DNA of 64,000 nt from Chloroflexota bacterium. GTDB lineage: Bacteria; Chloroflexota; Dehalococcoidia; Dehalococcoidales; UBA2162. The position numbers and the translations under genes are program-made. Positions 3,113 to 46,674 of the stretch are shown one piece after another (positions within the stretch are counted from its first letter, which is position 1; every line of letters starts with the position of its first letter). Location of the stretch: positions 9,773 through 73,772 of the forward strand of contig JACQGQ010000040.1 in assembly GCA_016199495.1 (NCBI GenBank). The letters are read 5' to 3'. The notes under the pieces were generated by a model. The model saw only the letters and a list, made by a program, of their open reading frames with translations. It had not been told where the DNA came from and searched no databases.

Positions 3113-4351
3113 ATGAAAATCCTCCATTTTAGTGACCTTCATTTAGGAGTGGAAAGCTACGGGCGGATTGACCCGGCTAGCGGCATATCTTCACGCCTGC
3201 TTGATTTCTTGGCTGTCCTCGACCAGGTGGTCGACTACGCCCTGGAGAACAGGGTCGACCTTGTCCTTTTCTGCGGTGATGCCTATAAAAGCCGGGAGCC
3301 GAGCCAGACCCAGCAGCGCGAGTTCGCCCGGCGCATTAACCGGCTGTCCCGCAGCGGAATTCCCGTCTTCCTCCTCGTCGGCAACCACGACCTGCCTAAC
3401 GCCAGCGGTAAGGCGACCACTACTGAAATTTTTGATACCCTGGCTATCCACAATGTTTATGTCTCCGACCACCCTGACATCTACCGAATTCCAACCAAAA
3501 GTGGCCTTATTCAAATAGCCTCTTTACCCTGGCTGAGACGCAGCGCCCTGTTGGGCAAGGAGGAGACTAAAAATCTTAGCTTTGAGCAGATTAACCGGAA
3601 GCTAGAGCAGGTGCTGACCGGTATTATTGCTGCCCATGCCGACAAACTCGACCCCGGACTGCCCTCGATACTGGCGGCACACGTCGGAGTAGCCAGCGCC
3701 ACCGTAGGCTCGGAAAGGCTGATGGCAATAGGGCAGGAGCATTTTTTATTGCTGAGTAATATTGCTAATCCTGCCTTTGATTATATCGCCTTAGGCCATA
3801 TTCACAAGCACCAGGTCCTATCGGACAATCCGCCGCTGGTCTATGCCGGTAGCCTGGAGCGGGTGGATTTCGGCGAAGAGGCCGACGAAAAAGGGTTTTA
3901 TACTGTAGCTATCGAGACGGAAGGGCAGACTGGTAAGCACAAGGTCGCTTACCAGTTTCACCCCGTAAGCGGGCGCCGCTTCCTCACCATCACCAGCGAT
4001 ATTGAACCGGAGGACACCGACCCCACCACAACGGTGCTCAAGGCTATCGCTGAACAGGGAGAGAAGGTCGGCGGGGCGATCGTGCGACTCCAGATTAGCC
4101 TGCCGGCGGAGATTGAAGGCCAGCTCAGGGATAACGACATCAGGGACGCCTTAAAAGAGACGTATTACTTTACCATCGCCAGGGATATCAAGCGAGAGGC
4201 TCGCCTCAGGCTGGGACAGTTTACCGCCGAAGAAATGACACCCCTTGAGGCGCTCAAATCCTACCTTGAAACCAGGAAAGTAGCCCCGGCCCAAGCTAAA
4301 CTGCTGCTTGAATACGGTGAGAAACTGATAGAGAGGGCGGGGGCTAAATAG
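3113..4351 (+). CDS. sbcD: Exonuclease SbcCD subunit D / Mre11-family metallophosphoesterase
   Basis: 412 aa with 'MKILHFSDLHLG', 'FCGDAYKSREP', 'LLVGNHD', 'LGHIHKHQ', the calcineurin-like phosphoesterase motifs in SbcD order. There is no sbcC next to it. Confidence 0.85.
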   Translation: MKILHFSDLHLGVESYGRIDPASGISSRLLDFLAVLDQVVDYALENRVDLVLFCGDAYKSREPSQTQQREFARRINRLSRSGIPVFLLVGNHDLPNASGKATTTEIFDTLAIHNVYVSDHPDIYRIPTKSGLIQIASLPWLRRSALLGKEETKNLSFEQINRKLEQVLTGIIAAHADKLDPGLPSILAAHVGVASATVGSERLMAIGQEHFLLLSNIANPAFDYIALGHIHKHQVLSDNPPLVYAGSLERVDFGEEADEKGFYTVAIETEGQTGKHKVAYQFHPVSGRRFLTITSDIEPEDTDPTTTVLKAIAEQGEKVGGAIVRLQISLPAEIEGQLRDNDIRDALKETYYFTIARDIKREARLRLGQFTAEEMTPLEALKSYLETRKVAPAQAKLLLEYGEKLIERAGAK

Positions 4352-4411: not shown

Positions 4412-7264
4412 CTACTTGTGGCCGTTCTTTTCTACCCTGACGGCGGCGACCTTGAATTCCGGTATTTTGGCTACCGGGTCGAGAGCCGGATTAGTGAGCA
4501 CGTTGGCCGGGCTCTCGGCAAAATGGAAATCCATGCAGACCACCCCGACCGGGGAAACCTCGGTCACCCTGGCTCTAGCCACTACCTCCCCCCTCCGTGA
4601 GATGACCCTGACCGCCTCGCCATCAGCAATACCTAAAGCTGAGGCATCAGCCGGGTTTATTTCCACCAGTTCTTCTCCGCGGATGGTATTGAGTCCCTTC
4701 ACCTTACGGGTCATGGTGCCGGTATGGTATTGATACAGGCTTCGTTCGGTGGTCAGGATGAGGGGATATTCATCATCGGGAAGCTCCATAGAAGGCTTAT
4801 ACTCCAGGGGGGTAAACCGTCCCTTCCCCCGGGTAAATAGCTGGGTGTGGAGAATAGGTGTTCCTGGATGCTCCTGTGTGGGGCAGGGCCACTGCAAGCC
4901 GCCTTCCTCCAGGCGATGGTAGGTGATACCTCCCAGGCTGGGAGTGAACCGGGCAATCTCGTCCATAATCTGCGACGGGTCTGCAAAGTCAAAACCCTGG
5001 CCGCCCATTCTCTGGGCAATCTGACAGGTAATTAACCAGTCAGGCCTGGAGTCGCCCAGAGGTTCAATTGCTTTCCTCACCCGCTGCACCCGGCGCTCGG
5101 TATTGGTGAAGGTACCATCCTTCTCGGCAAAGCTTACCCCCGGTAGAACGACATCAGCCAGCTGGGCTGTTTCCGAGAGAAAAATATCCTGGACGACCAG
5201 GAATTCTAGCGTTTTTAGCGACGCCCTGACATGGTTAGCGTCGGGGTCGCTCAATACCGGGTTCTCCCCGATAAGATAGATTGCTTTTATCTGCCCCTGA
5301 TAGGCAGCATCAAAAATCTCGGTCAGGGCCAACCCCGGCGAAGAGTCCAGGCTACATCCCCAGGCTGTCTCAAATTTTTCCTTGATAGCCGGGTCGGTTA
5401 CCGCCTGGTAGCCGGGATAGACATTGGGCAGGGCACCAAGGTCGCAGGCACCCTGGACATTGTTCTGACCCCGTAAGGGATTAACCCCGGTCGACGGCTT
5501 GCCGATATTTCCGGTAAGCATCGCCAGGTTAGCAATCGCTAATACATTATCGGTACCATGGGAGTGCTGAGTAATACCCATGGCAAAGAGAATGGTGGCT
5601 GGTTTATTGGTAGCATAGATGCGGGCGGCTTCAGCTACCTTTTCCCCGGGCACCCCGGTAATCCGCTCCACGGTGTCAAGGTCAAAGCTTTTGAGTGACT
5701 CCTTGAAGGCAGCAAAGTTCTCGCAGCGCTCCTCGATAAAGGCTGAGTCAAGCAATCCCTCATCCACTATTACCCGCATCATCCCCATGAGCAGGGCGAC
5801 ATCGCTGCCCGGGCGCTGCCTCAGCCACCGGTCGGCAAAGTGAACCAGACCAATCTCACGAGGGTTAGCCACAATAAGCTTGCCGTCGTGGCGGACGGCT
5901 CTCACTAACTCCAGGGCAATTACCGGGTGAGCCTGACAGGTATTAGTGCCAATCGCCAGAATGCAGGCGGCATCGCCAATATCGCGGATAGAGTTAGTCA
6001 TGGCGCCGCTGCCGAAGGCTGTGACCAGACCGGCCACGGTGGGGGAATGTCAGAGACGGGCACAGTGGTCAATGTTGTTGGTACCCAGTACCGCCCGGGC
6101 AAATTTCTGGGCAACATAGTTATCCTCATTAGTGCACTTGGCTGAGGAGATTACGGCGACCTCGTTTTTCTGGTAGCTGGCTAGTTTGCTGGCGACTAGG
6201 TCGAGAGCCTCTTCCCAGCTTGCTGCCACAAACTCTCCGTCCCGCTTCACCAGGGGAGTGGTCAGGCGCTCCGGGTGATGCACAAATTCCTGTATGCCGA
6301 AGCGTCCCTTGACACAGGCTTGCCCCCGATTTACCTCATTTTTTCGCTGGGGGAGGACTTCAATTATCCGCTCCCCTTTAAGCTGTAGCTCCAACTGGCA
6401 GCCGACCCCGCAGTAGGGACAGGTAGTCAGCACCTGCCGCTCCGCCGAACCCTGCCATTTCCGAGTGCGCTCCAGCAGCGCCCCGACAGGACAGACATCA
6501 ACACAAGCCCCGCAAAACTGGCAGCCCGACTCCATGAGGCTGGGTCCCCTGGCGCCAACTATAACCTTACCGTCTCGAAAAACATAGCCAAGAACATCGG
6601 CGCCACGCACCTCCCGGCAGACCCGGACACAGCGGGTGCAGCCGATGCATAGATTGTAGTCCCGGTCGAAGAAAGGAGCATTAGTTTCAAGAGGCTGTCC
6701 CTTAGCAGTATAGGGTAGCGGCCTTTCCTCTATGCCAAGACCAATATAGTCAGCTACCTTTTGCAGGTCACAGTGGTCATTCTTAGGGCAAAGGACACAG
6801 CGTTCGGTTATGTTGACACTGCGCAGGCAGATATTAAAAGGTTTACAGATGTTAAGATTGTCAGCCTGGTCAAAACGGTCACAGGTAAGGCAGACATTGG
6901 GGTGTTGCCAAAGAATAAGCTTCAGATTGTCATGTTGTTTCTGCTTGACCGGCGGCGTGCTGGTGCGGACCACCATACCACTGGTGGCCTCGGTAGTGCA
7001 AGCCGTCGGCAGAGCTTTCATACCCTCGATTGCAACAACACAGAGCTGACAGCCCTCATATCGTATCGCCGAATTATCGTTTTTGAGTGGCTCGGCATTA
7101 CAATAGATAACCTCACTGGCTTGCACCTCTCTTGACGAAGATAGGTCCGGATGGTAACACAGTGTCGGGATATAGATGCCAGCCTCCCTGGCGGCTTCCA
7201 GCACTGTCATTCCTTGGCTGGCTTCAATCTGCCGACCATCAATAGTTAGACTAATTTTATCCAT
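4412..7264 (-). CDS. fdhA: Formate dehydrogenase catalytic (alpha) subunit, selenocysteine-containing, with N-terminal 2Fe-2S/4Fe-4S domains
   Basis: Track ORFs 6050..7264 and 4412..6037 share one frame and are separated only by TGA at 6050-6052. Read-through gives ...[31 protein letters not shown]..., matching my recollection of the Sec context of E. coli FdhF (...CARVUHGPSVAGL...). The N-terminus has NuoG-like Cys motifs; the C-terminus has a molybdopterin-dinucleotide-binding region ('AVRVISRRGEVVARARVTE'). Confidence 0.85.
6021..6052 (-). promoter_or_regulatory. UGA(Sec) codon plus candidate bacterial SECIS hairpin
   Basis: The mRNA reads UGA CAU UCC CCC ACC GUGGCC-GGUCU-GGUCAC. This is a 6-bp stem (one G.U pair) with a GGUCU apical loop. 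As I recall the E. coli fdhF SECIS (UGA CAC GGC CCA UCG GUU GCA GGU CUG CAC C), GGUCUG sits at the same codon offset from the UGA there. Confidence 0.6.
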
Positions 7265-7304
7265 AATTTTGTCCAGCTGGTACAGCGGTGGCTTTCAAGG
7301 TGAG

Positions 7305-9644
7305 TTATCTGAGGACGGTGGAGTTCTTTCCCGCAGACAAGGCTAATGTTCTCGCCCTGAATTCTGACCGTTTCTGCGGTGGCAATGGCGGTGGTGCTAG
7401 TTCACACCTGAGGTGACACTGAAGGCACCGCTCCGCCTCTTCAACACCTTCAGCTTCGCTGTAGCCAAGCTCTACCAGGTTGAAGTTAGTTCCTCGCTCT
7501 GGCGCCGGGGTAAGCGATGTGGCGACCAGATGTCTGTCGCCAAAACCCTCTCGCCGTCCCAGATACAGACTACCGACATCCGGGTCAACCAGCGTTTCCT
7601 CTATGTCTCCGTTACCACCGAGGTATTTATCGATTGAGCTGGCGGCTTTTCTGCCGGCGGCGATTGCCTGAATAACCGAGGTAGTACCAGTTACCGCGTC
7701 ACCGGCGGCAAAAACACCTGCTTTACCGGTGGCTAAAGTATCGGCATCGACCGCCACCGTGCGCCCTCTGATGGTTCCGATATCACCGACGCTTTTAATT
7801 AGGTCAAGCTCAGGCACCTGACCAACGGCGAAGATGAGCGTATCGGCCGGCAGGATATGCTCTGAGCCGGCGACAACGTTGACCTTGAGCCGGCCTTGCT
7901 CAAAATGAAAAGAACTGACATCGTGACATTCAATTCCAGCAACATGCCTGTTGCCATCATCGACAATCCTGAGAAAGGTATGGGAACAATGGTAGATAAT
8001 GCCCTCTTCAGCGCCTTCTTCAATCTCATTTGCGGAAGCCAGCATCGCTTCCTCGGGCTCCAGACAAGCGATACGGACTTCAGTGGCGCCTAACCTCAGG
8101 GCAGTACGGGCACAATCAAAGGAAACATTACCACCCCCCAGCACGACGACCCTCTCTCCTATCTTGACTTCCTTACCCAGACGCACATCCCGCAACAATG
8201 TGGTATTGATGAGCACCCCTTCAAGGTCATTCCCGGGGATGGGTAGCTTTATCCCCTGGTGAGCGCCAACCGCCACCAGAGTAGCGTCATATCCCTGCTC
8301 CAGGAGCTTCTCCAGCGATTCGACTTTGCTGTTTAACTTAATCTCAACGCCGACATTCCTTATTTCATCTATTTCAGCGTCAATCACTTCCGTGGGCAGA
8401 CGGTACTCAGGGATCCCTACCCGCAGCATCCCTCCGGCTACGGGCAGGGACTCAAAGACGGTAACGCCATGCCCGAGCTTGGCAAGGTAGTAAGCGGCGG
8501 TTAGCCCGGCCGGACCGGAGCCGACAATGGCGACCTTCTTATCGGTGGCAAGAGCGAACCTGGCTCTCTGCTTCCATGAGCCGTCATCATACTCGGCGGC
8601 AAAGCCCTTTAACGACCTTATTCCTATCGCCTCAGTTAGCTCCTTGTGCCGGCACTCTTTCTCACAAAAAGCCAGGCAAACACGACCCAGAATCGCCGGG
8701 AAGGGAATTTTCTCACGATTGACCGCTACGGCTTCGGCATACTTTCCTTCTTTTATCAGGCGAATGTAGCGGGGGCAATCCACCCCCGCCGGACAGGCCG
8801 CCCGGCAGGGAACAAGCTTCTTGTCACGCTCTTTAGGCTTGATGTTCCTGTCGGTGATGGCGCCGACAGGGCAGACCTCGGCACACATCCCGCAGAAGAC
8901 ACAGCCCGACTCCTTGATGGTCGGCCCCCTGGCGCCAACGATAACTTTACCGTCTTGAAAAACGTAGCCAAGAGCATCGGCACCGCGCACATCCCGGCAG
9001 ACCCGGACACATCGGGTGCAGCCGATACACAAATTGTAGTCCCGGTCAAAGAGGGGGGTCTCACTATCAACCGGCTGTTCTTTAGCGATATAGGGGAGCG
9101 GCCTTTCCTCTATGCCTAGGTCAATATAGTCAGCCACCTTTTGCAGGTCGCAGTGGTCATTCTTGGGACAAAGCACACACCGCTCCGTTATCTTGACACT
9201 GCGCAGACAGATATTGTAGGGTTTACAGACATAAAGATTGTCGCCCTGGTCCTGACGGTCACAGGTAAGGCAGACATTGGGGTGTTGCAAAAGAATAAGC
9301 TTGAGATTGTCACGTTGTTTCTCTTGAACCGGTAGTGTGCTGGTATAAACCACCATACCCTCGGCGACCTCGGTAGTGCAGGCATTGGGTAGACCCTCCA
9401 TACCCTCGATTTCAACGATACAGAGTTGACAGCCCTCATATTCCGTCGCCGAGTTATCATTCTTAAACGGTTCGGCATTACGATAGATAATTTCACTGGC
9501 TCGCACCTCTCTTGATGATGGCAGGTCCGGGTGGTAACACAATGTCGGAATATAGATGCCGGCCTCCCGGGCGGCATCCAGTACCGTCATTCCCTCGCTG
9601 GCTTCAATTTGCCGGTCATTAATGGTTACCGTAATCTTACTCAT
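7305..9644 (-). CDS. Fusion protein: NuoG-like 2Fe-2S/4Fe-4S N-terminal module + GltD-like NAD(P)H-dependent FAD oxidoreductase
   Basis: N-terminal ~260 aa are ~80% identical by eye to the FdhA N-terminus. Then 'CPAGVDCPRYIRLIKEGKYAEA...REKIPFPAILGRVC' and the dinucleotide folds 'KKVAIVGSGPAGLTAAYYLAKLGHGVTVFE' and 'VVVLGGGNVSFDCART' typical of the glutamate synthase small subunit / NfnB / SfrB. The start is ambiguous: ATG 9644 (MSKITV) is preferred, with ATG 9656 or TTG 9665 possible. Confidence 0.8.
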   Translation of the reverse strand: MSKITVTINDRQIEASEGMTVLDAAREAGIYIPTLCYHPDLPSSREVRASEIIYRNAEPFKNDNSATEYEGCQLCIVEIEGMEGLPNACTTEVAEGMVVYTSTLPVQEKQRDNLKLILLQHPNVCLTCDRQDQGDNLYVCKPYNICLRSVKITERCVLCPKNDHCDLQKVADYIDLGIEERPLPYIAKEQPVDSETPLFDRDYNLCIGCTRCVRVCRDVRGADALGYVFQDGKVIVGARGPTIKESGCVFCGMCAEVCPVGAITDRNIKPKERDKKLVPCRAACPAGVDCPRYIRLIKEGKYAEAVAVNREKIPFPAILGRVCLAFCEKECRHKELTEAIGIRSLKGFAAEYDDGSWKQRARFALATDKKVAIVGSGPAGLTAAYYLAKLGHGVTVFESLPVAGGMLRVGIPEYRLPTEVIDAEIDEIRNVGVEIKLNSKVESLEKLLEQGYDATLVAVGAHQGIKLPIPGNDLEGVLINTTLLRDVRLGKEVKIGERVVVLGGGNVSFDCARTALRLGATEVRIACLEPEEAMLASANEIEEGAEEGIIYHCSHTFLRIVDDGNRHVAGIECHDVSSFHFEQGRLKVNVVAGSEHILPADTLIFAVGQVPELDLIKSVGDIGTIRGRTVAVDADTLATGKAGVFAAGDAVTGTTSVIQAIAAGRKAASSIDKYLGGNGDIEETLVDPDVGSLYLGRREGFGDRHLVATSLTPAPERGTNFNLVELGYSEAEGVEEAERCLQCHLRCELAPPPLPPQKRSEFRARTLALSAGKNSTVLR

Positions 9645-9693
9645 GCTTATCTGCATTCCCTCCAAGTAGTACTAAGTTATTAATATTTTGCCG

Positions 9694-10143
9694 CTACCGG
9701 GATTGGTTGGCTGGGAACCTGATTGTCTCTCCGGAAACTTTCACTACGGCGTTAAATCGCTCAGGGCAAACGGCCAGACAAGTGTTACACTTGGTACGCT
9801 TCTCCAGGCTAAATTTGTAATCCTCACTGGTTTCCCCGGCTTGAAGGCCAAGCTCCCGCTCCACTGTCTCTAAAAGGCGTCGTCCACCCTGAACATAGCA
9901 GGCAGTGCCCTGATAAACCCTTATGGCATGTTCACCCTGCCGTTCAAAGCGAAACTGGGCATAGAAGCTAGCCACGCCATAAACTTCATTCTTGGATATA
10001 CCCAAAAAAGTGGCTATCTCTGAGATTGCTTCTTCGGAGAGATAGCCTAATTCCTCTTGTACTTTCTGTAGAACAGGGATGGTCGCTCCCTTTTGCCCTC
10101 GATAAGGAGCCAAAATCGATGATAATCGCTCACGCAAAGTCAA
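9694..10143 (-). CDS. NuoE/HndA-like thioredoxin-fold [2Fe-2S] subunit (atypical Cys pattern)
   Basis: 149 aa with a TTG start. 'ATIPVLQKVQEELGYLSEEAISEIATFLGISKNEVYGVASFYAQF' is the NuoE N-terminal signature. The cluster motifs read 'VYQGTACYVQG' (first Cys replaced by Tyr) and 'KCNTCLAVCP' (CX3C plus one extra Cys). Confidence 0.7.
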   Translation of the reverse strand: MTLRERLSSILAPYRGQKGATIPVLQKVQEELGYLSEEAISEIATFLGISKNEVYGVASFYAQFRFERQGEHAIRVYQGTACYVQGGRRLLETVERELGLQAGETSEDYKFSLEKRTKCNTCLAVCPERFNAVVKVSGETIRFPANQSR

Positions 10144-10344
10144 AGTCCCAAAATATAATTTACTGACCCAAGTAATAGTTTACCACCAAACAGCGTCTAA
10201 GGCAAGCCAATGTCCCCGTACTGGTTGGCTGTAGCGGAGTCGTATTCGATGGCTTTGGCTGCCCACACTGATAATATCGAGAATCGCTTATTAGTCTGCA
10301 GGAAGCGATTGTGGAGTTTGCTCAAGATGGTTAAAAGTTTATTT

Positions 10345-10401
10345 TGCCAACTGGCAAAATAAGATACATATATTGACAACTGTCCTTATTTAACTTATAA
10401 T
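10345..10401 (+). promoter_or_regulatory. Consensus sigma70 promoter with upstream palindrome (copy 1 of a shared glycan-operon motif)
   Basis: TGCCAACTGGCA (10345-10356), 16 nt, TTGACA (10373-10378), 17-nt spacer, TATAAT (10396-10401). The -35 is embedded in TTGACAACTGTCC, a near-palindrome (GACAACTGTC). It lies 50 nt upstream of the XRE ATG. Confidence 0.75.
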
Positions 10402-10451
10402 TTAGCTGACATAGCAGGTAAAGCTTCATTTAATACGGCTTTTGATGTATA

Positions 10452-10643
10452 ATGGAGAAGCTTAAGGAAAAGGTAAAGGCGCTACGAAAGAAGAGAGGCT
10501 GGTCGCAAGAGGACCTGGCACGGGAAATAGATGTTAGCCTCTCCACGGTTCAGCGCTGGGAGGGGAAGGGGGCTAATCCCACCCGTCTGGCTCGTCGGGA
10601 GCTTAAGAAACTTTTCCGAGCCGCTGGCATTGATGACGAGTAG
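10452..10643 (+). CDS. XRE-family helix-turn-helix transcriptional regulator (63 aa)
   Basis: 'LRKKRGWSQEDLAREIDVSLSTVQRWEGKGANP' is a textbook HTH_3/XRE motif. It is the first gene after the consensus promoter and immediately precedes the GT2 gene. Confidence 0.85.
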   Translation: MEKLKEKVKALRKKRGWSQEDLAREIDVSLSTVQRWEGKGANPTRLARRELKKLFRAAGIDDE

Positions 10644-10650
10644 GAAAATA

Positions 10651-11532
10651 ATGGCTAGACCGCCTCGACCGAAAATAATGGCTGCTATTCCCGCTTTTAA
10701 TGAGGAGAAGTACATCGGTACCATCGTACTTAAAACCAGGCAATATGTGGATGAGGTCGTTGTCGTTGACGATGGTAGTACGGACCAAACGGCCAGCATC
10801 GCCAGACTGGCCGGGGCTAACGTCATTCAGCACCAGCAAAACAGGGGTTATGGGGCTAGCATCCAGACCCTCTTAACCGATGCCAAGGGAAAAGAGCTTG
10901 ATATTCTTGTCCTTCTTGATGGTGACTTCCAGCACAATCCTGACGAAATTCCTCAACTCATCCAGCCCATCTCGGAAGGTTTTGACCTCGTTATTGGCTC
11001 AAGGGAAGCCCAGGGGGTCAATATCCCTGGATACCGCCGTATCGGGCAAAGGGCGATAGCCTATTTCTCCCGTATTCTCTCCGGGAAAAAGCTCTACGAT
11101 TCCGAGTCCGGATTCAGGGTTTTTTCCCGAAAGGCGATAGCCTTGCTCGAGTTGAAAGAAAATGGCATGGCTATCTCAGCCGAGACGATAGCCGAGGCGG
11201 CTGAAAAGGGGCTCAAAATTACCGAAAGGCCAATTTCAATCAGGTACACTGAGGACGGCTCAACCCTGCACCCCGTCGTGCATGGCTTTGGGGTTCTCGG
11301 TCGCATCATCGTCATGATTTCTGAAAGGAGACCCCTCTTTTTCTTCGGGCTGGGTGGTTTCATACTGAGCGTGCTTGGCTTGTTTGTCGGCATCAGGGTG
11401 CTGAGCATTGCTTCCGCTAGCGGGCAGGTAGCTATCGGCACGGCGCTGGTCTCAACCTTGTTGCTGATTATTGGCGTATTGAGTATTTTTACCGGCGTCA
11501 TACTAAACGTGCTCACCAAATGGAGAAGCTGA
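10651..11532 (+). CDS. GT2 polyprenyl-phosphate glycosyltransferase (GtrB/ArnC/DPM1-like) with two C-terminal TM helices
   Basis: ATG 10651 lies 5 nt after AGGA; the track ORF start at 10531 overlaps the XRE gene in another frame. 'IMAAIPAFNEEKYIG...VVVVDDGSTDQT' and 'LDGDFQHNPDEIP' are GT-A DXD-type motifs. The C-terminus 'LFFFGLGGFILSVLGLFVGI...ALVSTLLLIIGVLSIFTGVIL' gives two TM helices. Confidence 0.85.
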   Translation: MARPPRPKIMAAIPAFNEEKYIGTIVLKTRQYVDEVVVVDDGSTDQTASIARLAGANVIQHQQNRGYGASIQTLLTDAKGKELDILVLLDGDFQHNPDEIPQLIQPISEGFDLVIGSREAQGVNIPGYRRIGQRAIAYFSRILSGKKLYDSESGFRVFSRKAIALLELKENGMAISAETIAEAAEKGLKITERPISIRYTEDGSTLHPVVHGFGVLGRIIVMISERRPLFFFGLGGFILSVLGLFVGIRVLSIASASGQVAIGTALVSTLLLIIGVLSIFTGVILNVLTKWRS

Positions 11533-11737
11533 GAGGGTGTCAAAATGTCATTCTGAACGTAGCGAAGAATTTCGGGGAAGGGCAGACCCGCCTGCTAAAG
11601 CTTGGCGGGCAGGCAAACTAACAGGAAACTGGCTTTTGGTCATTCTGTCTCAAATTCTGGCTAACAGAATTAGAGTACCTTAACAGCCTCTATATGCCAT
11701 GTCGGTAACATTGATAATTTGAAGAGGAATCGAGGCA

Positions 11738-12814
11738 TTGAAGATTACGATAATCGTTGGCACTCGCCCCGAAATAATCAAAATGGCACCGGTCATCAGG
11801 GAATTAGAGAAACGGCCGGCTAACTACTTTATCCTCCATACTGGCCAGCACTATTCATACAACCTTGACCGGGTATTCTTTGAGCAGCTAAAACTCCCGC
11901 CGCCTAAATATAATCTGGAGGCAGGGTCGGGCTCACCTGGTGAGCAAACGGCAAAGATACTTGTCGCTATCGAAAAAGTCCTGCAACAGGAAAGCCCCGA
12001 TGTAATTCTGGTGGAGGGTGACACCAACTCTGTCCTCGCCAGTGCTCTAGCTGCGGTTAAGCTCCACATAAAAGTGGGGCATGTCGAGGCCGGCTTGAGA
12101 AGCTACGACAGGCAGATGCCGGAGGAGATTAATCGTATCTTGACCGACCATTGCTCCGACTTCCTGTTTGCCCCCACCAGGCAGGCAAAAGCCAACCTGC
12201 GGGGGGAGGGTATTCCTGAAGAGAAGATATTCATCACCGGCAATACGATTGTTGATGCCGTCCAGCAGAGCCTGGCAATAGCCAGAGGCAGTGCCAGTAC
12301 TATTAACACCCTGGGCCTCAAGACGGGGGAATATTTCTTGGTAACCGTTCACCGCCAGGAGAATGTCGATAACCGGGCAAGATTTGCCTCTATCTTGAAA
12401 GGTCTTGACAGGCTGGCGGCTAGCTTTGAAATGCCGGTAATCTATCCTGTCCACCCCCATTCCAGGAAGATGATGGCTAAGTTCGACCTTCACTGCCAAC
12501 GCCTCAGGCTGGTTGAACCAGTAGATTTCCTTGGCTTTTTGCAACTTGAGAGCAATGCCCGGCTTATCCTGACCGATTCCGGCGGTGTCCAGGAAGAGGC
12601 TTGTATCCTCGGTGTGCCCTGCGTTACCCTGAGAGATAACACTGAGAGACCGGAAACAATCGAGGTTGGCGCCAACGTCTTAGCCGGTGTTTCGCCGGAT
12701 AAGATACTTGAATGCGCCAAGGTGATGCTTGACCGGGAAAAGGGTTGGCCGAATCCCTTCGGCGACGGCAAAGCTGGAGGGAGAATTGTTGACATACTGG
12801 GGGGGAAGAGATGA
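11738..12814 (+). CDS. wecB: UDP-N-acetylglucosamine 2-epimerase (non-hydrolysing)
   Basis: 'MKITIIVGTRPEIIKMAPV', 'VEGDTNSVLA', 'HVEAGLRSYD...MPEEINR', 'SDSGGVQEEA' are the WecB/MnaA signatures. TTG start. Confidence 0.9.
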   Translation: MKITIIVGTRPEIIKMAPVIRELEKRPANYFILHTGQHYSYNLDRVFFEQLKLPPPKYNLEAGSGSPGEQTAKILVAIEKVLQQESPDVILVEGDTNSVLASALAAVKLHIKVGHVEAGLRSYDRQMPEEINRILTDHCSDFLFAPTRQAKANLRGEGIPEEKIFITGNTIVDAVQQSLAIARGSASTINTLGLKTGEYFLVTVHRQENVDNRARFASILKGLDRLAASFEMPVIYPVHPHSRKMMAKFDLHCQRLRLVEPVDFLGFLQLESNARLILTDSGGVQEEACILGVPCVTLRDNTERPETIEVGANVLAGVSPDKILECAKVMLDREKGWPNPFGDGKAGGRIVDILGGKR

Positions 12815-13725
12815 GAATACTGGTCACCGGCGGTCTGGGAGCGGTCGGCAAGCCCTTATCTGGGGAATTGAGGCGGAGGGGGCATGAGGTCTGGATTTCA
12901 GACAGGACGCACTCTTATGAGTCATATTACATAAGGTGCGATATCGGCGAGTTTCACCAGGTGGAGGCTCTTTTCCGTAAAGTGGAATTTGATTATGTCT
13001 ATCATCTCGCCGCCGAATTTGGTCGCCGTAATGGCGAAGATTTCTATGAGACGCTCTGGAAGACGAATGCTATTGGCACGAAGAATATCCTGAGAATGCA
13101 GGAACGGCTTCAATTCAAGATGATATTCACCAGCAGTTCGGAGGTCTACGGGGATTACGGCGGGATTATGAGTGAAGATGTCATGGATAAAGTGGCTATC
13201 CGGCAAATGAACGATTACGCTATGAGTAAGCGAGTGAACGAGATGCAAATTTTGAATTCCGCTGATAGATTCGGTACGGAGACAGTGCGCCTCCGGTTGT
13301 TCAACACTTACGGCCCCGGAGAGTATTATTCTGAGTATAGGAGCGCTATCTGTGTCTTTATCTATCGAGCTCTGCACGACTTACCCTACACCGTTTTCAC
13401 CAGGCACAGACGGACCTCCTCCTATATCGATGATACGGTCAGGACACTGGCTAATATCGTCGGAAATTTCAAGCCGGGCGAGGTCTATAACATCGCCGGT
13501 AACGAATTGCACGATATGAAGCAAGCCTCCGATATTATTCTCAGTTATCTGGGTAAGGATGATAGTTTGGTCGAGTATCGTGATGTCGAAGAAGCGACCA
13601 CCCTGGAGAAGAGGGTGGATGCTTCCAGGGCAGTTCGCGACCTGGGGCATCAAAGCACCGTGGCCCTGGAGGAGGGCATCCCGAGGACTATCGACTGGCA
13701 GAAAGGGGTTTACGGCCGTGGCTAA
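12811..13725 (+). CDS. NAD-dependent epimerase/dehydratase (extended SDR)
   Basis: 'MRILVTGGLGAVG' Rossmann motif, 'FTSSSEVYG', 'YAMSK' (YxxxK). The ATGA overlaps the wecB stop. Confidence 0.8.
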   Translation: MRILVTGGLGAVGKPLSGELRRRGHEVWISDRTHSYESYYIRCDIGEFHQVEALFRKVEFDYVYHLAAEFGRRNGEDFYETLWKTNAIGTKNILRMQERLQFKMIFTSSSEVYGDYGGIMSEDVMDKVAIRQMNDYAMSKRVNEMQILNSADRFGTETVRLRLFNTYGPGEYYSEYRSAICVFIYRALHDLPYTVFTRHRRTSSYIDDTVRTLANIVGNFKPGEVYNIAGNELHDMKQASDIILSYLGKDDSLVEYRDVEEATTLEKRVDASRAVRDLGHQSTVALEEGIPRTIDWQKGVYGRG

Positions 13726-14938
13726 GAAAATAGTCATAATTGGTACCGGTTATGTCGGCTTGCCTCTCGCTATCGTGCTGGCGCGCGCCGGCTATCAGGT
13801 TGTCGGTGTTGATATTGAGGAAAACGTAGTCAACGCCATTAACCAGGGTGTCTTACGTCTGGCTGAAGAAGAGGTCAAGCAGATATTCCGGGAACCCCGG
13901 GTAAGAGAGAACCTTCATGCCCAGAAGACCCCTTGCCCGGCAGATGTCTTTATCATCTCGGTGCCGACACCCCTGGACGAAAAGAAAAGGATTGCTGACC
14001 TTTCCCAGGTTATCGGCGGTGTGGAGTCTATTTTACCATTTTTGCGTTCGGGTAACCTGGTCATCCTGGAAAGCACCGTGCCTCCGCTCACCTGCCGGCA
14101 GATTGTCGCTCCCCTTATTGAAAAGACCGGGTTAAAAGTGGGGGAAAGCATTTTCCTCTGTCATTGTCCGGAAAGAATTTTACCCGGCGAAGTATTTGAG
14201 GAACTGGTGAACAATGACCGGGTTATTGGCGGGCTTAATGCTCAAGCCGCCCAGATGGCCAGGGAAATCTATGCCTCCTTTGTTAAGGGGAATCTTTATC
14301 TCACTGACGATGTTACCGCGGAACTGGTCAAGCTGATGGAAAATACCTATCGAGATGTCAATATCGCCCTGGCTAACGAATTTGCCGCCGTGGCTGAAGG
14401 GCTTAGAGTGGATATCTTGCAGGCGATTGAGCTGGCTAATAAGCATCCTCGGGTCAATATCCTTAAACCCGGCATCGGTACTGGCGGGCATTGTATTCCT
14501 GTCGACCCCTGGTTTATCAAGGAGGTTAATCCGATTAACTCTCGCCTCATCCATACTGCCCGGCTGATTAATGATGAGGTACCCTATAAAATTGCTGCCA
14601 GGATTAGGCAGACCCTCAAGGAGATAAAGAATCCTCGTATAGTAGCCGTCGGTGTTACCTACAAACCTGATACCTATGACATCAGGAATAGCCCGGCGCT
14701 GAAGATAGTTAGCCTGCTCAGGGAAGACGGCTACCAGGTGGCAGCCTATGACCCGTTGGCTCAGGGTTATCAATATACTTCTCTCGGGGAAGTAGCCAAA
14801 GGAGCCGATTGTTTAGTGATACTGGTGGAGCATCAGGTTGTTAAGCAAGAGCTTGCCGGTAAGGAGATTGATATCAAGAAGGTTATGCGCCACCCCTTGA
14901 TAATGAGATTCTACCCTCAACCAGAAGTGACCACCTAG
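13718..14938 (+). CDS. Nucleotide-sugar 6-dehydrogenase, UDP-N-acetyl-D-mannosamine dehydrogenase (WecC)-like
   Basis: GTG 13718 overlaps the upstream stop; the track start at 13559 lies inside the previous gene. 'KKIVIIGTGYVGLPLA', 'GGHCIPVDPWFI'. Proximity to wecB (one SDR gene between them) suggests UDP-ManNAcA formation. Confidence 0.8.
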   Translation: MAKKIVIIGTGYVGLPLAIVLARAGYQVVGVDIEENVVNAINQGVLRLAEEEVKQIFREPRVRENLHAQKTPCPADVFIISVPTPLDEKKRIADLSQVIGGVESILPFLRSGNLVILESTVPPLTCRQIVAPLIEKTGLKVGESIFLCHCPERILPGEVFEELVNNDRVIGGLNAQAAQMAREIYASFVKGNLYLTDDVTAELVKLMENTYRDVNIALANEFAAVAEGLRVDILQAIELANKHPRVNILKPGIGTGGHCIPVDPWFIKEVNPINSRLIHTARLINDEVPYKIAARIRQTLKEIKNPRIVAVGVTYKPDTYDIRNSPALKIVSLLREDGYQVAAYDPLAQGYQYTSLGEVAKGADCLVILVEHQVVKQELAGKEIDIKKVMRHPLIMRFYPQPEVTT

Positions 14939-14943
14939 GAACA

Positions 14944-16350
14944 ATGTTAAAAATAACTTTAATAAACCCCCCGCAAGCCAGCCAATATTCACAACCCCCG
15001 ATGGGGCTAGCCTTGCTCGCCGCTGTCCTGGAAAGGGGCGGCTACAATGTAGCTGTCGTCGATGCCAACGCCTTAAAGCTCAAGCCGGAGAATGTCGTCC
15101 CCCAGGTGATTGATACCGATGTCGTCGGACTGACCGCGATGACTCCCACGATAAATGCGGCGATAGCTATCGCTCACCATCTGAAAAAAGCTGACCCCGA
15201 TTTGACCTTAATCCTGGGCGGTGCCCACGCTACTCTGCTACCTGAGGAAACGTTAATTAGTGCCCCTGAAATAGACGTGGTTATCCGGGGAGAGGGGGAA
15301 GAGACCGTTATTGAATTACTGCGGGCTTTAGAAGATAAGCAGCCTTTAGGTAAAATTCCAGGCATTAGCTACCGAAAAGATGGTAAGGTGGTCAGTAATG
15401 CGGCTAGAGCCACGGAGGTTGATTTGGACTCTCTGCCTTTTCTTGGCTACCACTTACTGCCCTGGCAAAGATATAAACCCCATCCGCCCCACGGCCGCGC
15501 CCTCCCCTTTGCCGCTATTATCACCAGTCGGGGTTGTCCTTACCAGTGTGGCTACTGCTCCAAACCCATCTTTGGCAACAAGTTTAGAGGGCAAAGCCCG
15601 CAGAGGGTGGTTGCTGAGATTGCTTACTACCAGGATAAGTTTGCCATTAAAGAGTTTGCTTTCTACGATGATGTCTTTACCCTGAACCGGCAGAGAGCCT
15701 ATGGGATAGCCGAAGAGCTAATAAAAAGGGAGCTAAAAATAGTCTGGACCTGCGAGACGCGGGTCAACCTGGTGGATAAAGATTTATTGACCCGTATGAA
15801 GCAAGCCGGTTGCTATGCGGTTGCCTATGGTATCGAATCTGCTTCCCCGGAGATACTGGCCAGTCTCAACAAAGGCATAACTATCGACAAGGTGGAGGAG
15901 GCAATTCGCCTATCCCGGGAGGTAGGCTTACAAACCATTGGTTACTTTATGATTGGCTGTCCCGGCGAGAACCAGGAAACCATCGTTGCCACCATTGAAT
16001 TTGCCAAGAAGCTAAAGGTTGATTTCGCCCAGTTTGCTGTCACCACACCATTCCCGGGTACCGGGTTATACGACTTATATCTAAAGGATAAGGGAGACAA
16101 CATCCCCTGGGAAAACTTTGTCTACGGAGGGGCGGGCAACCAGATAAACCCCGTGTTTGAAAGCGCTCAACTTAGCCGGGCTGACCTTGAGTATTGGAAG
16201 GGAAGAGCTTATCGAGAATTCTACCTGCGTCCGGCTTACATCTGGCAGCGCCTTAAACAGGTTGACTCTATCGGGGACTTAAGACTTAATCTCAAGGGGT
16301 TTTTGATGCTTCTGGGGGATATCAAACCTCGGCCAAGAGAAGGAGCATGA
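14944..16350 (+). CDS. B12-binding-domain radical SAM protein (COG1032-type, class B rSAM) no. 1
   Basis: N-terminal Rossmann-like cobalamin-domain pattern ('LINPP...PMGLALLAAVLERGGYNVAVVD...VVGLTAMT...ILGGAHAT...IRGEGE'), then 'SRGCPYQCGYCSKP' (CxxxCxxC). Confidence 0.85.
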   Translation: MLKITLINPPQASQYSQPPMGLALLAAVLERGGYNVAVVDANALKLKPENVVPQVIDTDVVGLTAMTPTINAAIAIAHHLKKADPDLTLILGGAHATLLPEETLISAPEIDVVIRGEGEETVIELLRALEDKQPLGKIPGISYRKDGKVVSNAARATEVDLDSLPFLGYHLLPWQRYKPHPPHGRALPFAAIITSRGCPYQCGYCSKPIFGNKFRGQSPQRVVAEIAYYQDKFAIKEFAFYDDVFTLNRQRAYGIAEELIKRELKIVWTCETRVNLVDKDLLTRMKQAGCYAVAYGIESASPEILASLNKGITIDKVEEAIRLSREVGLQTIGYFMIGCPGENQETIVATIEFAKKLKVDFAQFAVTTPFPGTGLYDLYLKDKGDNIPWENFVYGGAGNQINPVFESAQLSRADLEYWKGRAYREFYLRPAYIWQRLKQVDSIGDLRLNLKGFLMLLGDIKPRPREGA

Positions 16351-17567
16351 ACATCCTTTTTGTCCACGAAGTTGATTGGCTGAGAAAGGTAGTGTTTGAA
16401 ATACACACCCTTTCCGAACTTTTGTCCCTGTCAGGACACCAGGTTTATGCCATTGACTATGAATCTATGTGGGTTAAGAACCAGCCCTTTGACTTTGGCA
16501 GCCTCAAAACGCAGACAGTTGATAGGGTAGCCAGGGCTTACCCCGATGCCTCGGTGAGCCTGATACGTCCCGGCTTTATCAAGCTTCCCGGCTTGAGCCG
16601 TCTCTCGGCGACCTACACCCACTGCCGGGAAATCCAGAAAACTATTAAGGGAAAAGATATTGATGTTATTATCCTTTACTCCGTGCCGACCAATGGCTGG
16701 CAAACCATCCGTCTCAGTCGGAAGCTGGGCGTGCCGCTAGTGTTCAGAGCCATCGATATACCCAATCAACTCGTCCCCTATCCGCTCTTGCGCCCGATGG
16801 TTCGCTGCCTGGAAAGAAAAGTATACTCCAACGTAGACCTGATTCTAACCATTAGCCCGCGGCTGTCCCAATACGTGATTAATATGGGCGCCCCGCCGGC
16901 TAAGGTGGAACTGCTGCTCCTGGGGGTAGATACCGGCTTCTTCCGTCCGCAGCCTGATGATACTGAAATCCGCCGGAAATGGGGGTTGGGGGAAAAGGAC
17001 CTGATTATCGTTTTCATCGGCACCCTGTTTGGTTTCAGCGGGCTTGATGCCTTTATCCGCCGTTTCTCTGAAATCGTAAGAGAGATTCCCGAAGCCAGGC
17101 TGCTCATCGTCGGTGATGGACCTCAGCGCCCCGGGCTGGAAAGAATAATCACGGAATTGGGTCTGCAAAGGCAGGTCATCATCACCGGCTTCCAACCCTA
17201 TGAGACGATGCCCGGCTACATCAATCTGGCGGCAGTATGTATAAATATCTTCCGGCTGACAGCTACTACCCGGGATATCTTCCCGACCAAGATAGTCCAG
17301 TATCTGGCTTGCGGCAAGGCGGTGGTTGCCACGCCGCTGCCCGGCATGACGGCCATAATTCACGGCCGAGAGCAGGGGATAGTTTATGCCACTACCCCTG
17401 GCGAGATAGCTTCCGAGATAATCGCACTGCTTCAATCACCCCAGGACAGGCAACAATTAGGGCAAGCCGCTTTAAGCTACGTGAAGCAAGCGCACAGTTA
17501 TGATAGAATAGCTCAACAGCTTGAAGCCGCCCTTGGTGAAGTCGCTGGTAGAGGGGAATCAGCGTGA
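16347..17567 (+). CDS. GT4-family glycosyltransferase no. 1
   Basis: 406 aa with GT-B retaining-type C-terminal motifs ('IIVFIGTLFGFSGLD...LLIVGDGP...FPTKIVQYLACGKAVVAT'). The ATGA overlaps rSAM-1. Confidence 0.85.
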   Translation: MNILFVHEVDWLRKVVFEIHTLSELLSLSGHQVYAIDYESMWVKNQPFDFGSLKTQTVDRVARAYPDASVSLIRPGFIKLPGLSRLSATYTHCREIQKTIKGKDIDVIILYSVPTNGWQTIRLSRKLGVPLVFRAIDIPNQLVPYPLLRPMVRCLERKVYSNVDLILTISPRLSQYVINMGAPPAKVELLLLGVDTGFFRPQPDDTEIRRKWGLGEKDLIIVFIGTLFGFSGLDAFIRRFSEIVREIPEARLLIVGDGPQRPGLERIITELGLQRQVIITGFQPYETMPGYINLAAVCINIFRLTATTRDIFPTKIVQYLACGKAVVATPLPGMTAIIHGREQGIVYATTPGEIASEIIALLQSPQDRQQLGQAALSYVKQAHSYDRIAQQLEAALGEVAGRGESA

Positions 17568-19012
17568 CGATACTGCTACTTAACCCGAAGCTTAACTCCT
17601 GGAGTCCGAATGTCTATGTGCCACTGGGACTGGCCTACATCGCCGCCGCCTTAGAACAGGCCAGCTACAGTGTCGAAATCATCGACCTTAATGTAGAAAA
17701 AATAAGCGATAACGAACTGCAGCGAAAAACAGCCGCGGCTGATATGGTAGGTATTACCGGCATGGTTACGGAACATGAGGGCATCTTGAGATTAGTCGAT
17801 ACTATCAAGAAAGCCAATGCTGAGACCGGAGTAATCTTGGGTGGTCCTCTGGCGACGACGCTGCCGCGGGAAATGCTCCAGTCCTCCCGGGCCGACTTCG
17901 TAGTTATCGGGGAGGGGGAGAAAACTATCGTCAACCTTGTTTCGGCGATAAAGCACGGTGATAACTTCAGCGATATTAAAGGTATCGCCTATAAAGATGG
18001 TGACCGAATCATCGTCGCCGAGCCAGCAGAACCTATCGCCAACTTGGACACTGTTCCCTTCCCGGCCAGACACCTTTTAGATATGAATCGTTACCTGCAA
18101 AATCATTTCGAGCGCTTTGGGTTCAAAGTTAAGGATTTCGGTAAAATCAAGAGTACCAACCTGGTATCAAGCAGAGGCTGCCCCTATAGCTGCACCTTTT
18201 GTTTCAAAGGCATGTGGGGCAGAACGTGGCGGGCACGAAGCCCGGAAAATATCATTGACGAGATGGAACTGCTCTACCGGGAGTATGGAGTAAATGGTTT
18301 TTTCTTCAATGATGATACCTTTGTCCTCGATAGAAAGAGAATTTTTGAATTTTGCCAGTTATTGAAGGCAAGGGGATTGAAGGTCGCCTGGTATTGCAAC
18401 GGTCGCATCAACCTGATGACAAAAGAACTGCTTGAAGCTATGTATGATGCCGGCTGCCGCGGCATCGCCTATGGCATAGAGTCAGGCACCCAGCAGATAC
18501 TGGACTCGATGAAAAAGAACGTAGCCCTTGACCGGGTAAGAACGGTGGTCAAATATACCAGGGAGGCCGGTATTTATACCACCGGCTACTTTATGATTGG
18601 GATGCTGGGTGAAAACAGGACCACCATCAGAAAAACTATGAGTTTCGCCCGGGAGCTTGAGCTAGATTATTACGGCTTTTCCCTGACAACCCCCTTAATC
18701 GGGACGGAGCTATATGACCATGCCCTTGAAGCCGGGCTGATAGAAAGAGATGGTACGTCTCCACAAGAGTGGAGCCTCCATGTCAATGCCAATTTGACCG
18801 ATGATTGCTCTGATGCGGAACTGGCTGCCTTTGAGAGCGAAGCCTTTAAGGAATTCTTCCTTAAGAAGAGATTCGGTAAATACTATTTCTTTAACCCGAA
18901 CTTCTTAAAAGAGGAGCTGGCAGTGCTTCTTTCGCTGCGCCACAAGGCGCAAGCCAAAGAATTGGCTAATAAAGTTAAAGGTATTGTTAGCTCTTACTGG
19001 CATAAAGGTTAG
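17564..19012 (+). CDS. B12-binding-domain radical SAM protein no. 2 (paralogue of no. 1)
   Basis: 'LLNPK...PLGLAYIAAALEQASYSVEIID...MVGITGMV...ILGGPLAT...IGEGE' then 'SRGCPYSCTFCFKG'. It is collinear with rSAM-1 over its full length. The GTGA overlaps the upstream GT4. Confidence 0.85.
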   Translation: MTILLLNPKLNSWSPNVYVPLGLAYIAAALEQASYSVEIIDLNVEKISDNELQRKTAAADMVGITGMVTEHEGILRLVDTIKKANAETGVILGGPLATTLPREMLQSSRADFVVIGEGEKTIVNLVSAIKHGDNFSDIKGIAYKDGDRIIVAEPAEPIANLDTVPFPARHLLDMNRYLQNHFERFGFKVKDFGKIKSTNLVSSRGCPYSCTFCFKGMWGRTWRARSPENIIDEMELLYREYGVNGFFFNDDTFVLDRKRIFEFCQLLKARGLKVAWYCNGRINLMTKELLEAMYDAGCRGIAYGIESGTQQILDSMKKNVALDRVRTVVKYTREAGIYTTGYFMIGMLGENRTTIRKTMSFARELELDYYGFSLTTPLIGTELYDHALEAGLIERDGTSPQEWSLHVNANLTDDCSDAELAAFESEAFKEFFLKKRFGKYYFFNPNFLKEELAVLLSLRHKAQAKELANKVKGIVSSYWHKG

Positions 19013-19014
19013 AC

Positions 19015-21143: not shown

Positions 21144-21202
21144 AAAGCGTGAAAGGAATATGAGCTAGGCTGGGCAGTCAGCCAAAGATGAGGGGGAGAG
21201 AT

Positions 21203-23702: not shown

Positions 23703-23710
23703 AGATTGAT

Positions 23711-24817: not shown

Positions 24818-24839
24818 AAGTTTTACTTTTATTAAGGTA

Positions 24840-26944: not shown

Positions 26945-27005
26945 CCGGAAGCCTGAGTAAAGGAGCAATTTCCTGTTAGGTTAGCCCTATAAAAATGAGA
27001 AAGAT

Positions 27006-37810: not shown

Positions 37811-37875
37811 TGTTCTACCGCCCTGAGGGTAAACTATTATTCTCTAAAATGCCTGAGTTCTTGGTCAGTTTTGTT

Positions 37876-44501: not shown

Positions 44502-44663
44502 TGTCTTGTCTTCTTTTTGCTTAAAAAGTTCACGGCATTCCTACGGACTGCTTCTATCTCTGTTTTTGCTTACCTATATCATCAGGTTTCCTGTCGATTA
44601 TTATGGTCTCTCTGCTATTCTTACCACATATTATAGCATGTAATGTGGCGGATATTAATAACA

Positions 44664-46653: not shown

Positions 46654-46674
46654 GATTGCTTGCAGTAATACTCT

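Follow-up and report, generated by a model that had tools for sequence, protein, structure and literature searches.

We analysed a 64,000-nt window of the genome of a Chloroflexota bacterium (Dehalococcoidales; UBA2162; assembly GCA_016199495.1, contig JACQGQ010000040.1, positions 9,773-73,772), in which three long glycan operons each begin with a copy of the same promoter motif, made up of two short conserved blocks and spanning ~41 bp as a whole module. The motif is real and specific, is conserved in relatives, is linked both to glycan genes and to the gene of a 63-aa XRE-family protein (hereafter XRE), and has spread by duplication. Based on these features, we propose, with a probability of roughly 55%, that the three copies are sigma-70-type promoters with two candidate operators each, and that they constitute an autoregulated XRE regulon controlling the three glycan operons. 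The elements of the module and the genes that it heads are the following, in coordinates of the window.

10345-10356, plus strand: block 1 of copy 1, the candidate distal operator, with the core TGCCAACTGGCA, an exact match to the search pattern
10357-10372, plus strand: spacer of copy 1, 16 nt with 88% A+T in the position of an UP element, its sequence differing between copies
10373-10385, plus strand: block 2 of copy 1, the candidate proximal operator, TTGACAACTGTCC, consisting of the -35 hexamer TTGACA and seven conserved spacer bases
10396-10401, plus strand: -10 hexamer of copy 1, TATAAT, after a 17-nt spacer
10452-10643, plus strand: gene of the 63-aa XRE/Cro-type helix-turn-helix protein, the first of operon 1 and the candidate regulator
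10452-29240, plus strand: operon 1, with XRE as its first gene and the remaining genes at 10651-29240
44721-44710, minus strand: block 1 of copy 2, TGCCATCTGGCG, 48 nt past the stop codon of an ABC exporter gene
44692-44680, minus strand: block 2 of copy 2, TTGACAATTGTCC, the -35 plus the palindrome GACAATTGTC
44501 to 29271, minus strand: operon 2, from Pfam scans
63204-63193, minus strand: block 1 of copy 3, TGCCATCTGGCA, within the palindrome ATGCCA-TC-TGGCAT
63176-63164, minus strand: block 2 of copy 3, TTGACAATTGTCC, an exact match
62894 to 50441, minus strand: operon 3, from Pfam scans

The composite pattern used for searches was TGCCANCTGGC(A/G), 16-17 nt, TTGACAAYTGTCC. A first-pass annotation of the window had pointed out the blocks, and the sequences, spacings and positions it gave hold for all three copies (the inter-block spacer is 17 nt in copy 2 and 16 nt in copy 3), as does its observation that the -35 of copies 2 and 3 is overlapped by a perfect 10-bp palindrome, GACAATTGTC. 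Block 1 had been described as a 5+5 inverted repeat with a 2-nt centre. The palindrome is indeed there, but it is longer than this, reaching 9+2+9 in copy 1 (ATTTTGCCA-AC-TGGCAAAAT, 10341-10360), and in several relatives the core of block 1 is the perfect 12-mer TGCCAGCTGGCA. All three copies carry sigma-70-type -35 and -10 hexamers at a spacing of 16-18 nt. Copy 1 agrees with the consensus at 12/12 positions (TTGACA-17-TATAAT, 10373-10401), copy 3 at 11/12 (TTGACA-18-CATAAT, with the -10 at 63152-63147 on the minus strand) and copy 2, which has a weak -10, at 10/12 (TTGACA-17-TACCAT, -10 at 44669-44664, minus strand). Transcription from copy 1 is predicted to start ~7 nt past the -10, near 10408-10409. 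A sigma-54 reading of the CTGGCA half-site was ruled out on inspection of the sequence, the TTGC element being missing at the required spacing.

The composite motif has three exact matches in the window, compared with 7e-9 expected from base composition. Exact matches of either block within the 64 kb are confined to the three copies, and the few matches with one or two mismatches all fall outside the three promoter gaps. Each copy is intergenic, the three occupying 3 of the 9 gaps longer than 100 nt (gaps make up 5.2% of the window), and each is oriented into the operon downstream of it, a glycan operon of 12-19 kb. Positions, orientation and the glycan content seen in Pfam scans therefore confirm that the copies head, and point into, three long glycan operons, as had been claimed. 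The motif is absent from two further glycan-related units of the window, namely the ABC exporter and an AsnB-like/WbuX unit, and from the remaining glycan-related promoter region at 46555-46955. In 356 kb of related DNA, no block was found without its partner block. An exact-pattern scan returned 2 loci from 185,579 species genomes (596 Gb) and 22 from the Joint Genome Institute (JGI) metagenome collection; both genome records with the motif are Dehalococcoidales metagenome-assembled genomes (MAGs). The composite motif had no match in a viral contig collection, and a phage origin was rejected on this basis.

At most of the loci found through the motif (L numbers denote individual loci), the motif is followed at 17-18 nt by TTTATAAT, by a leader of ~45-50 nt and then by an XRE ortholog heading a glycan operon. 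We distinguished 28 motif instances, most of which read TTGACA, 17-18 nt and TATAAT or a near match (exact TATAAT in 20). Wherever the downstream genes were readable and identifiable, they encode an XRE homolog, a glycan-related protein or an envelope membrane protein, and the commonest order is XRE, then a family 2 glycosyltransferase (GT2) and an epimerase. By inspection, XRE is followed in L019 by phosphoglucosamine mutase-, nucleotidyltransferase- and GlmS-like sequences, and a sugar-phosphate-isomerase-like gene follows the motif in L015. An epimerase comes after the motif in L010, L018 and L027, in the last case ahead of a radical SAM operon, and L025 and L028 have membrane proteins of no assigned family in this position. 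Next to block 1 the flanking bases tend towards symmetry, most loci having T..A, copy 3 and L029 having A..T and L031 having C..G, and the two blocks differ consistently at position 3 of the half-site, which is C in block 1 and A in block 2.

Independently of the motif, XRE homologs were collected by a protein search (1240 matches, the top 120 of them at least 73% identical) and the DNA upstream of their genes was read. The homologs evaluated share 75-81% identity and fall into six evaluable lineages, in five of which the two-block promoter precedes the XRE gene.

L032: block 1 TGCCAGTTGTCT, spacer of 16 nt, block 2 TTGACAATTGTCA
L035: block 1 TGCCAATTGACA, spacer of 17 nt, block 2 TTGACAGTTGTCT
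L036: block 1 TGCCAGTAGGCA, spacer of 16 nt, block 2 TTGACAATTGTCC
L040: block 1 TGTCTGCTGGCA, spacer of 8 nt, block 2 TTGACAGCTGTCC
L043: block 1 TACCGTCTGGCA, spacer of 16 nt, block 2 TTGACAACCGTCC

Mean pairwise identity in this motif-independent set is 0.94 for the -10, 0.84 for block 2 and 0.68 for block 1, and ~0.50 for the two spacers. Half-sites have been swapped between the blocks, since block 1 reads TGCCAG|TTGTCT in L032 and TGCCAA|TTGACA in L035, and in L043 one half-site of each block has changed from CA to CG. Both the swaps and the L043 change are consistent with a single symmetric binder for the two blocks. The annotated genes after XRE are all glycan- or carbohydrate-modifying, with a GT2 in most lineages and a polysaccharide deacetylase in L035. 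Upstream of XRE in L032, a divergent gene is annotated as STT3/AglB (7479-9797, minus strand; STT3 Pfam match), and an 801-aa counterpart with a WWDYG motif, which is typical of AglB/STT3 oligosaccharyltransferases, is divergent from the XRE promoter in L022 (2556-4961, minus strand). These AglB/STT3-like neighbours and the AglJ-like GT2 of the window suggest a pathway for archaeal-style N-glycosylation. Overall, the linkage between the cis-element and XRE is well supported.

Two side observations concern the promoter regions of XRE genes. L035 has tandem promoter modules ahead of XRE (9762-10000), the second of which is degenerate (TGCCAGCAGACA, 17 nt, TTGATA-17-TATAAT). At XRE-type loci, as in the window (10420-10460), the XRE start codon lies within a conserved TATAATG, preceded in most orthologs by TTCAYT-17-TATAAT. 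A promoter at this site would start transcription within the XRE gene and skip XRE, or the conservation may merely reflect the context of the ribosome-binding site (GAGG, 4 nt, ATG).

The XRE protein itself matches the Pfam family HTH_3 (PF01381) at 42.3 bits (cutoff 23; E 8e-11), which confirms the earlier assignment of the first gene after copy 1 to a 63-aa XRE-family helix-turn-helix protein. Its AlphaFold2 (AF2) model (predicted local distance difference test, pLDDT, 87.7) is a compact all-helical fold with helices at residues 4-15, 19-26, 30-38 and 45-58, in which helices 2-3 form the helix-turn-helix; the protein consists of this domain alone. The top fold matches of the model in the PDB all have the XRE fold (template modelling score, TM, 0.6-0.74), and the closest found with Foldseek are C.Esp1396I, HipB, C.BclI, P22 c2, 434 Cro and the N-terminal domain of SinR (3qq6). 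These proteins are small dimeric binders of palindromic operators, and most of them are autoregulators. By sequence, the best PDB match is HipB (E 0.001). Within the 64 kb, XRE was the sole DNA-binding protein to emerge, as Pfam scans of the ~59 window genes (Pfam and NCBIfam together covered essentially all of them) returned no other DNA-binding domain. No second XRE copy or remnant was found in the window by tblastn and blastn, and a duplicate or degenerate XRE gene following copy 2 or copy 3 was therefore rejected. A database entry from a 'Chloroflexi bacterium' MAG has the identical protein. Outside the family, the closest matches to the domain are giant proteins of many tandem XRE-like repeats, one example being 4162 aa long with 34 matched stretches (P0241 and others).

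In the mechanism we propose, the three sites are copies of one sigma-70-type promoter module, whose original place is the promoter of the 63-aa XRE gene, the first in a glycan operon that probably serves S-layer or protein glycosylation. A distal palindrome of 12-20 bp (consensus TGCCAG|CTGGCA), predicted to be centred near -57, is followed by an A/T-rich, UP-element-like spacer of 16-17 nt (75-88% A+T) and by a proximal palindrome (TGACAA|TTGTCC), predicted to be centred near -28, which holds the -35 and the first seven bases of the promoter spacer. XRE dimers would bind both palindromes through shared half-sites of the type TGNCAR (TGCCAG/CTGGCA and TGACAA/TTGTCC), with TGCCAGCTGGCA and TGACAATTGTCC as the candidate operator sequences. 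Occupation of the proximal site would block RNA polymerase at the -35 and spacer, and XRE would thereby repress its own operon in negative feedback and operons 2 and 3 in trans, tying ~47 kb of glycan genes to the level of one regulator. Regulation by XRE is thus probably repressive, while the distal site may activate at low regulator level, as in the controller proteins of restriction-modification systems. It is reasonable to infer that XRE binds the blocks, and whether it represses or activates and where transcription starts are likewise inferred.

Several observations weigh against an autoregulated XRE regulon. At the 24 loci found through the motif, the positions of the search pattern are conserved by construction, and the conservation of block 2 is confounded with that of the -35 hexamer and partly explained by it. 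In L040 the blocks are separated by 8 nt compared with 16-17 nt elsewhere (21 versus 29-30 bp from centre to centre), which makes cooperation in a rigid arrangement less likely. The blocks of L042 are all degenerate and lie within a threefold tandem repeat of ~100 nt. At L046, the closest ortholog locus of copy 2 (82% identical), block 1 has largely decayed and block 2 is no longer symmetric. The fold matches of the XRE model are generic for the XRE fold (Foldseek E at least 0.025). In addition, every homolog seen has the same recognition helix (VSLSTxQRWE), so that a test for protein-operator covariation is impossible. Regulation could also be bypassed by extra promoter-like sites that lie ~50-95 nt downstream of the motif promoters of copies 2 and 3.

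44630-44658, minus strand: second promoter-like site of copy 2, TTAATA-17-TATAAT with a TG extension, its -10 region kept in L046
63057-63065, minus strand: second promoter-like site of copy 3, an extended -10, TGcTATAAT, ~95 nt downstream, read from the sequence and aligned with the site of copy 2

The downstream site of copy 2 and the sequence after it (TATAATATGTGGTAAGRATAGCA) are conserved in L046 at ~3640-3660. Two orthologs of the first gene after copy 2 were examined, and the one in L045 lies inside an operon without a promoter of its own, the other being the gene behind the decayed module of L046, a mixed outcome for the conservation of copy 2. The repeat unit of L042 (1-275), upstream of its XRE homolog, contains a degenerate promoter, TTGAGA-17-TACAAT, and a leader.

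The history of the copies bears on how the module is to be understood. The first-pass annotation had described the sequence around the blocks as unconserved, which holds when the copies of the window are compared with one another. In comparison with relatives, however, copy 3 has ~30 nt directly past its -10 that are homologous to their XRE leader, with an alignment score of 27 versus 15 +/- 2.3 for shuffled sequences (1 of 2000 reached it); copy 2 has no similarity beyond the blocks. Several copies that are not followed by XRE, those of L010, L015, L018, L025, L027 and L028 among them, keep remnants of the XRE leader together with the first 1-27 codons of the XRE gene. As this leader and these codons are still attached, such copies descend from a duplicated XRE promoter, and as read from the sequences the XRE-less copies are old duplicates of the XRE promoter cassette whose flanks decayed and whose blocks outlasted them. 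The persistence of the blocks while leader and XRE remnants decay implies selection on the blocks, and their survival amid decaying flanks argues for a function. The earlier choice of binding sites rather than duplication was accordingly a false one, since the XRE-less copies acquired their XRE leader and codons by duplication and the blocks then survived.

Rearranged forms of these loci were also observed. Two motif promoters face each other ~600 nt apart in L010 (389-1005) and likewise in L013; in L010, XRE codons 1-26 are joined head-on to epimerase codons 42-1 (compare 10345-10530 and 62770-63204 of the window). L010 could be the product expected from deleting ~52 kb between convergent promoters of the copy 1 and copy 3 types, or else a chimera made in assembly. 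Three further loci, L008 (~7230-7310), L014 and L022 (~5270-5360), have an XRE gene that breaks off after codon ~27, at the position seen in L010. The glycan operon is missing from these three loci, and L022 has housekeeping-type genes on the opposite strand. A rearrangement hotspot may thus exist within the XRE gene. In L046 (1513-5118), a gap of only 129 nt separates the counterparts of the genes that end operon 3, which encode an FkbM methyltransferase and a 370-aa protein, from the downstream ortholog of the gene that opens operon 2, without the ABC exporter and the AsnB/WbuX region that separates operons 2 and 3 in the window. Since this gene order differs from that of the window, the glycan region is modular and has been rearranged between strains.

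Taken further, the cassette may be a portable 'regulon plug', a suggestion that we make only tentatively. It would have been copied repeatedly, along with the leader and the first XRE codons, in front of newly acquired or rearranged glycan operons in Dehalococcoidales, placing each under one XRE master regulator, and could also serve as a homology anchor for wholesale replacement or deletion of glycan islands. In this way it would control how a surface glycan of archaeal style, linked by AglB/STT3, varies in a bacterial lineage that has an S-layer and no wall.

A regulated cassette has to be weighed against three other explanations. Paralogous copies that carried leader and XRE codons along would also be expected if a strong constitutive promoter had been duplicated, with no dedicated regulator and with blocks that persist as core elements or by shared descent. 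Block 2 contains the -35, the inter-block spacer (75-88% A+T) resembles an UP element, and decay of the blocks is seen in L046 and L042, all of which would suit such a promoter. However, the block bases outside the hexamer outlast their surroundings even where a copy is old and cannot otherwise be aligned, as is the case for copy 2. Dyad symmetry is present in both blocks and tends to persist in the bases next to block 1, and neither block stands alone in the 356 kb. We know of no need of RNA polymerase for a palindrome at about -63 to -52, nor for the seven bases past the -35, and we regard a merely constitutive promoter as rather unlikely. The cassette could, alternatively, be regulatory while one or both palindromes are bound by another factor encoded elsewhere in the genome, XRE having other targets or none of these. 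Regulators outside the 64 kb of genome examined are possible, the consistent C/A difference at half-site position 3 would suit two proteins, and block 1 drifts more than block 2 (identity 0.68 versus 0.84 in the motif-independent set). Such a factor nevertheless seems unlikely given the linkage of motif and XRE in 5/6 independent lineages and at most motif-found loci, the half-sites swapped between blocks in L032 and L035, and the lack of any other DNA-binding protein in the window or beside the motif in relatives. That small XRE proteins usually autoregulate at their own promoter also counts against it.

The junctions described above could suggest that the palindromes, instead of being operators, mediate recombination or rearrangement or act as homology anchors in the swapping, inversion or deletion of glycan islands. 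The L010 junction fits a deletion between convergent copies 1 and 3, and L008, L014 and L022 lack the glycan operon and share the codon (~27) at which XRE ends. Against this, the junctions are found not at the palindromes but ~180 nt away, within the coding sequence of XRE, and L010 may be chimeric through assembly. Pfam scans of the window revealed no recombinase or integrase domain, the IstB-like ATPase next to copy 3 has no transposase partner in view, and it is transcription, not recombination, that accounts for the fixed placement of the blocks with respect to the -35 and -10. We therefore consider it very improbable that the palindromes are recombination sites. An invertible, phase-variable promoter was rejected as well, since each block is a palindrome of its own rather than one of two inverted copies bracketing the promoter, and the window has no recombinase domain.

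An autoregulated XRE repressor with dyad operators is a textbook mechanism, and among known systems the proposed XRE regulon would most resemble, in the way it works, an autoregulatory switch of the C-protein or Cro type that has one more target in trans. The nearest functional precedent is C.Esp1396I, whose gene opens its own operon behind a promoter with two operators, and which also regulates in trans a second promoter with a related operator (PMC3488213, PMC2691842). Like the C proteins C.Esp1396I and C.AhdI (PMC3488213, PMC2691842), XRE is a small single-domain XRE fold encoded by the first gene of an operon, whose promoter holds two dyad-symmetric candidate operators and has its -35 within the proximal of the two. 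C proteins are also the best Foldseek matches of the XRE model, at a sequence identity of only ~23-25%. Unlike them, XRE is placed before glycan operons with no restriction or methylase genes as neighbours, and its sites are 29-30 bp apart from centre to centre instead of adjacent in a tetramer site of ~35 bp. The blocks (TGCCANCTGGCA and TTGACAAYTGTCC, 16-17 nt apart) also differ from the GACT...AGTC repeats of C-boxes (PMC3488213). A restriction-modification controller is thereby ruled out, there being no restriction-modification genes nearby and no C-boxes; scans of the whole window likewise found no restriction-modification domain. Type II XRE-fold antitoxins (HipB, HigA, MqsA) resemble XRE in that they are small and have palindromes in their own promoter, although autoregulation is only predicted here. 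An antitoxin was ruled out because no toxin gene is adjacent (a GT2 gene lies downstream and the upstream gene is divergent) and NCBIfam antitoxin models score far below their cutoffs.

Regulators of exopolysaccharide operons were compared in the same way. SinR of Bacillus subtilis is an XRE-family repressor of eps with repeated promoter sites (GTTCTYT), a C-terminal oligomerisation domain and the antagonist SinI. The window system shares with it an XRE-type helix-turn-helix, here with a predicted role, at a long exopolysaccharide-type operon with repeated promoter sites. However, XRE, unlike SinR, is the first gene of its own operon, and the sites are unrelated. A SinR-type regulator was rejected, as XRE with its 63 aa lacks a multimerisation domain and no sinI-like partner was seen in the neighbourhood. 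In enterobacteria, the short JUMPStart/ops element marks the 5' ends of several long polysaccharide operons per genome, often flanks replaceable glycan islands and acts on elongation via RfaH. Both ops and the window blocks mark the starts of several glycan operons, but ops lies in the transcribed leader, whereas the blocks lie upstream of and within the promoter. The ops 8-mer GGCGGTAG is absent from all three leaders, which rules out this element. Elsewhere in the window it occurs three times (58356 on the plus strand; 2022 and 37815 as reverse complement) versus ~2 expected by chance; the occurrence at 37815-37822 (minus strand) is on the coding strand between two operon 2 genes and is probably due to chance. 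The HTH_XRE factor NMB0910 is reported to modulate a capsule promoter of Neisseria meningitidis, with activation in E. coli reporters (PMC12131743). It is LexA-like, encoded away from the locus and without a shared two-palindrome module (PMC12131743), whereas the window XRE heads its own operon. Control of capsule or exopolysaccharide promoters by XRE-type proteins is thus already known elsewhere (SinR; PMC12131743).

Our literature search found no paper on this regulator or motif, nor on the regulation of surface glycans in uncultured Dehalococcoidales, of whose transcriptional control little is known. Members of this order are thought to rely on a glycosylated S-layer instead of a peptidoglycan wall. 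If the proposal is true, a 63-aa protein and a module of ~41 bp would provide a simple handle on ~47 kb of glycan genes that is approachable without culture. The module could further help to locate glycan islands of this clade in metagenomic data, as a sequence tag. Its spread with pieces of the XRE gene attached is a clear example of regulon growth by promoter duplication. The type of switch is ordinary, but it is well conserved and belongs to a poorly known lineage.

The three operons encode a broad set of sugar-modifying functions. Operon 1 contains an AglJ-like GT2 polyprenyl-phosphate glycosyltransferase, a UDP-GlcNAc 2-epimerase, further epimerases and family 4 glycosyltransferases (GT4s), along with two B12-radical SAM proteins, a transketolase-like pair, a DegT aminotransferase, methyltransferases and a 744-aa DUF2206 membrane protein. 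Operon 2 encodes a B12-radical SAM protein, GDP-mannose dehydratase-like and other epimerases, split E1/transketolase-like genes, DegT and GNAT proteins, an RmlC-like epimerase, a GHMP kinase, and SIS, HAD and UDP-glucose dehydrogenase-type genes. In operon 3 we identified two epimerases, a UDP-sugar dehydrogenase, a cytidylyltransferase, a GFO oxidoreductase, DegT and GNAT proteins, a NeuB-type synthase and methyltransferases. Upstream of copy 1 are a divergent gene and a ferredoxin/oxidoreductase cluster with a 2Fe-2S ferredoxin-like neighbour. Two glycan-related units without the motif lie between operons 2 and 3.

44770-46554, minus strand: MsbA/PglK-like ABC exporter
46956-50242, plus strand: AsnB-like and WbuX unit

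A leader RNA element was rejected as unsupported. Rfam gave no match in the window at gathering thresholds, and single-sequence folds of 29 leaders were weak and inconsistent. RNAalifold of the leaders yielded only a 6-pair hairpin, ACUUCA/UGAGGU, which would cover the ribosome-binding site and has no covarying pairs. The gene directly upstream of copy 3 (63351-63920, minus strand) encodes a 189-aa DnaC/IstB-like AAA ATPase, with no transposase partner visible; specific NCBIfam models all score below cutoff, and the protein looks N-terminally short against them. The GT2 gene of operon 1 (Pfam PF00535; 10651-11532) starts 7 nt past the XRE gene, and its product is most like AglJ, yet below the NCBIfam cutoff (143 versus 325 bits). 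Behind it, the window has a 205-nt gap (11533-11737) where relatives encode a protein of ~102 aa (MLEIKVCEIRGRCPVYEVGDR...) between GT2 and UDP-GlcNAc 2-epimerase (L012, L021, L023 and L026), and this gene appears to have been lost from the window.

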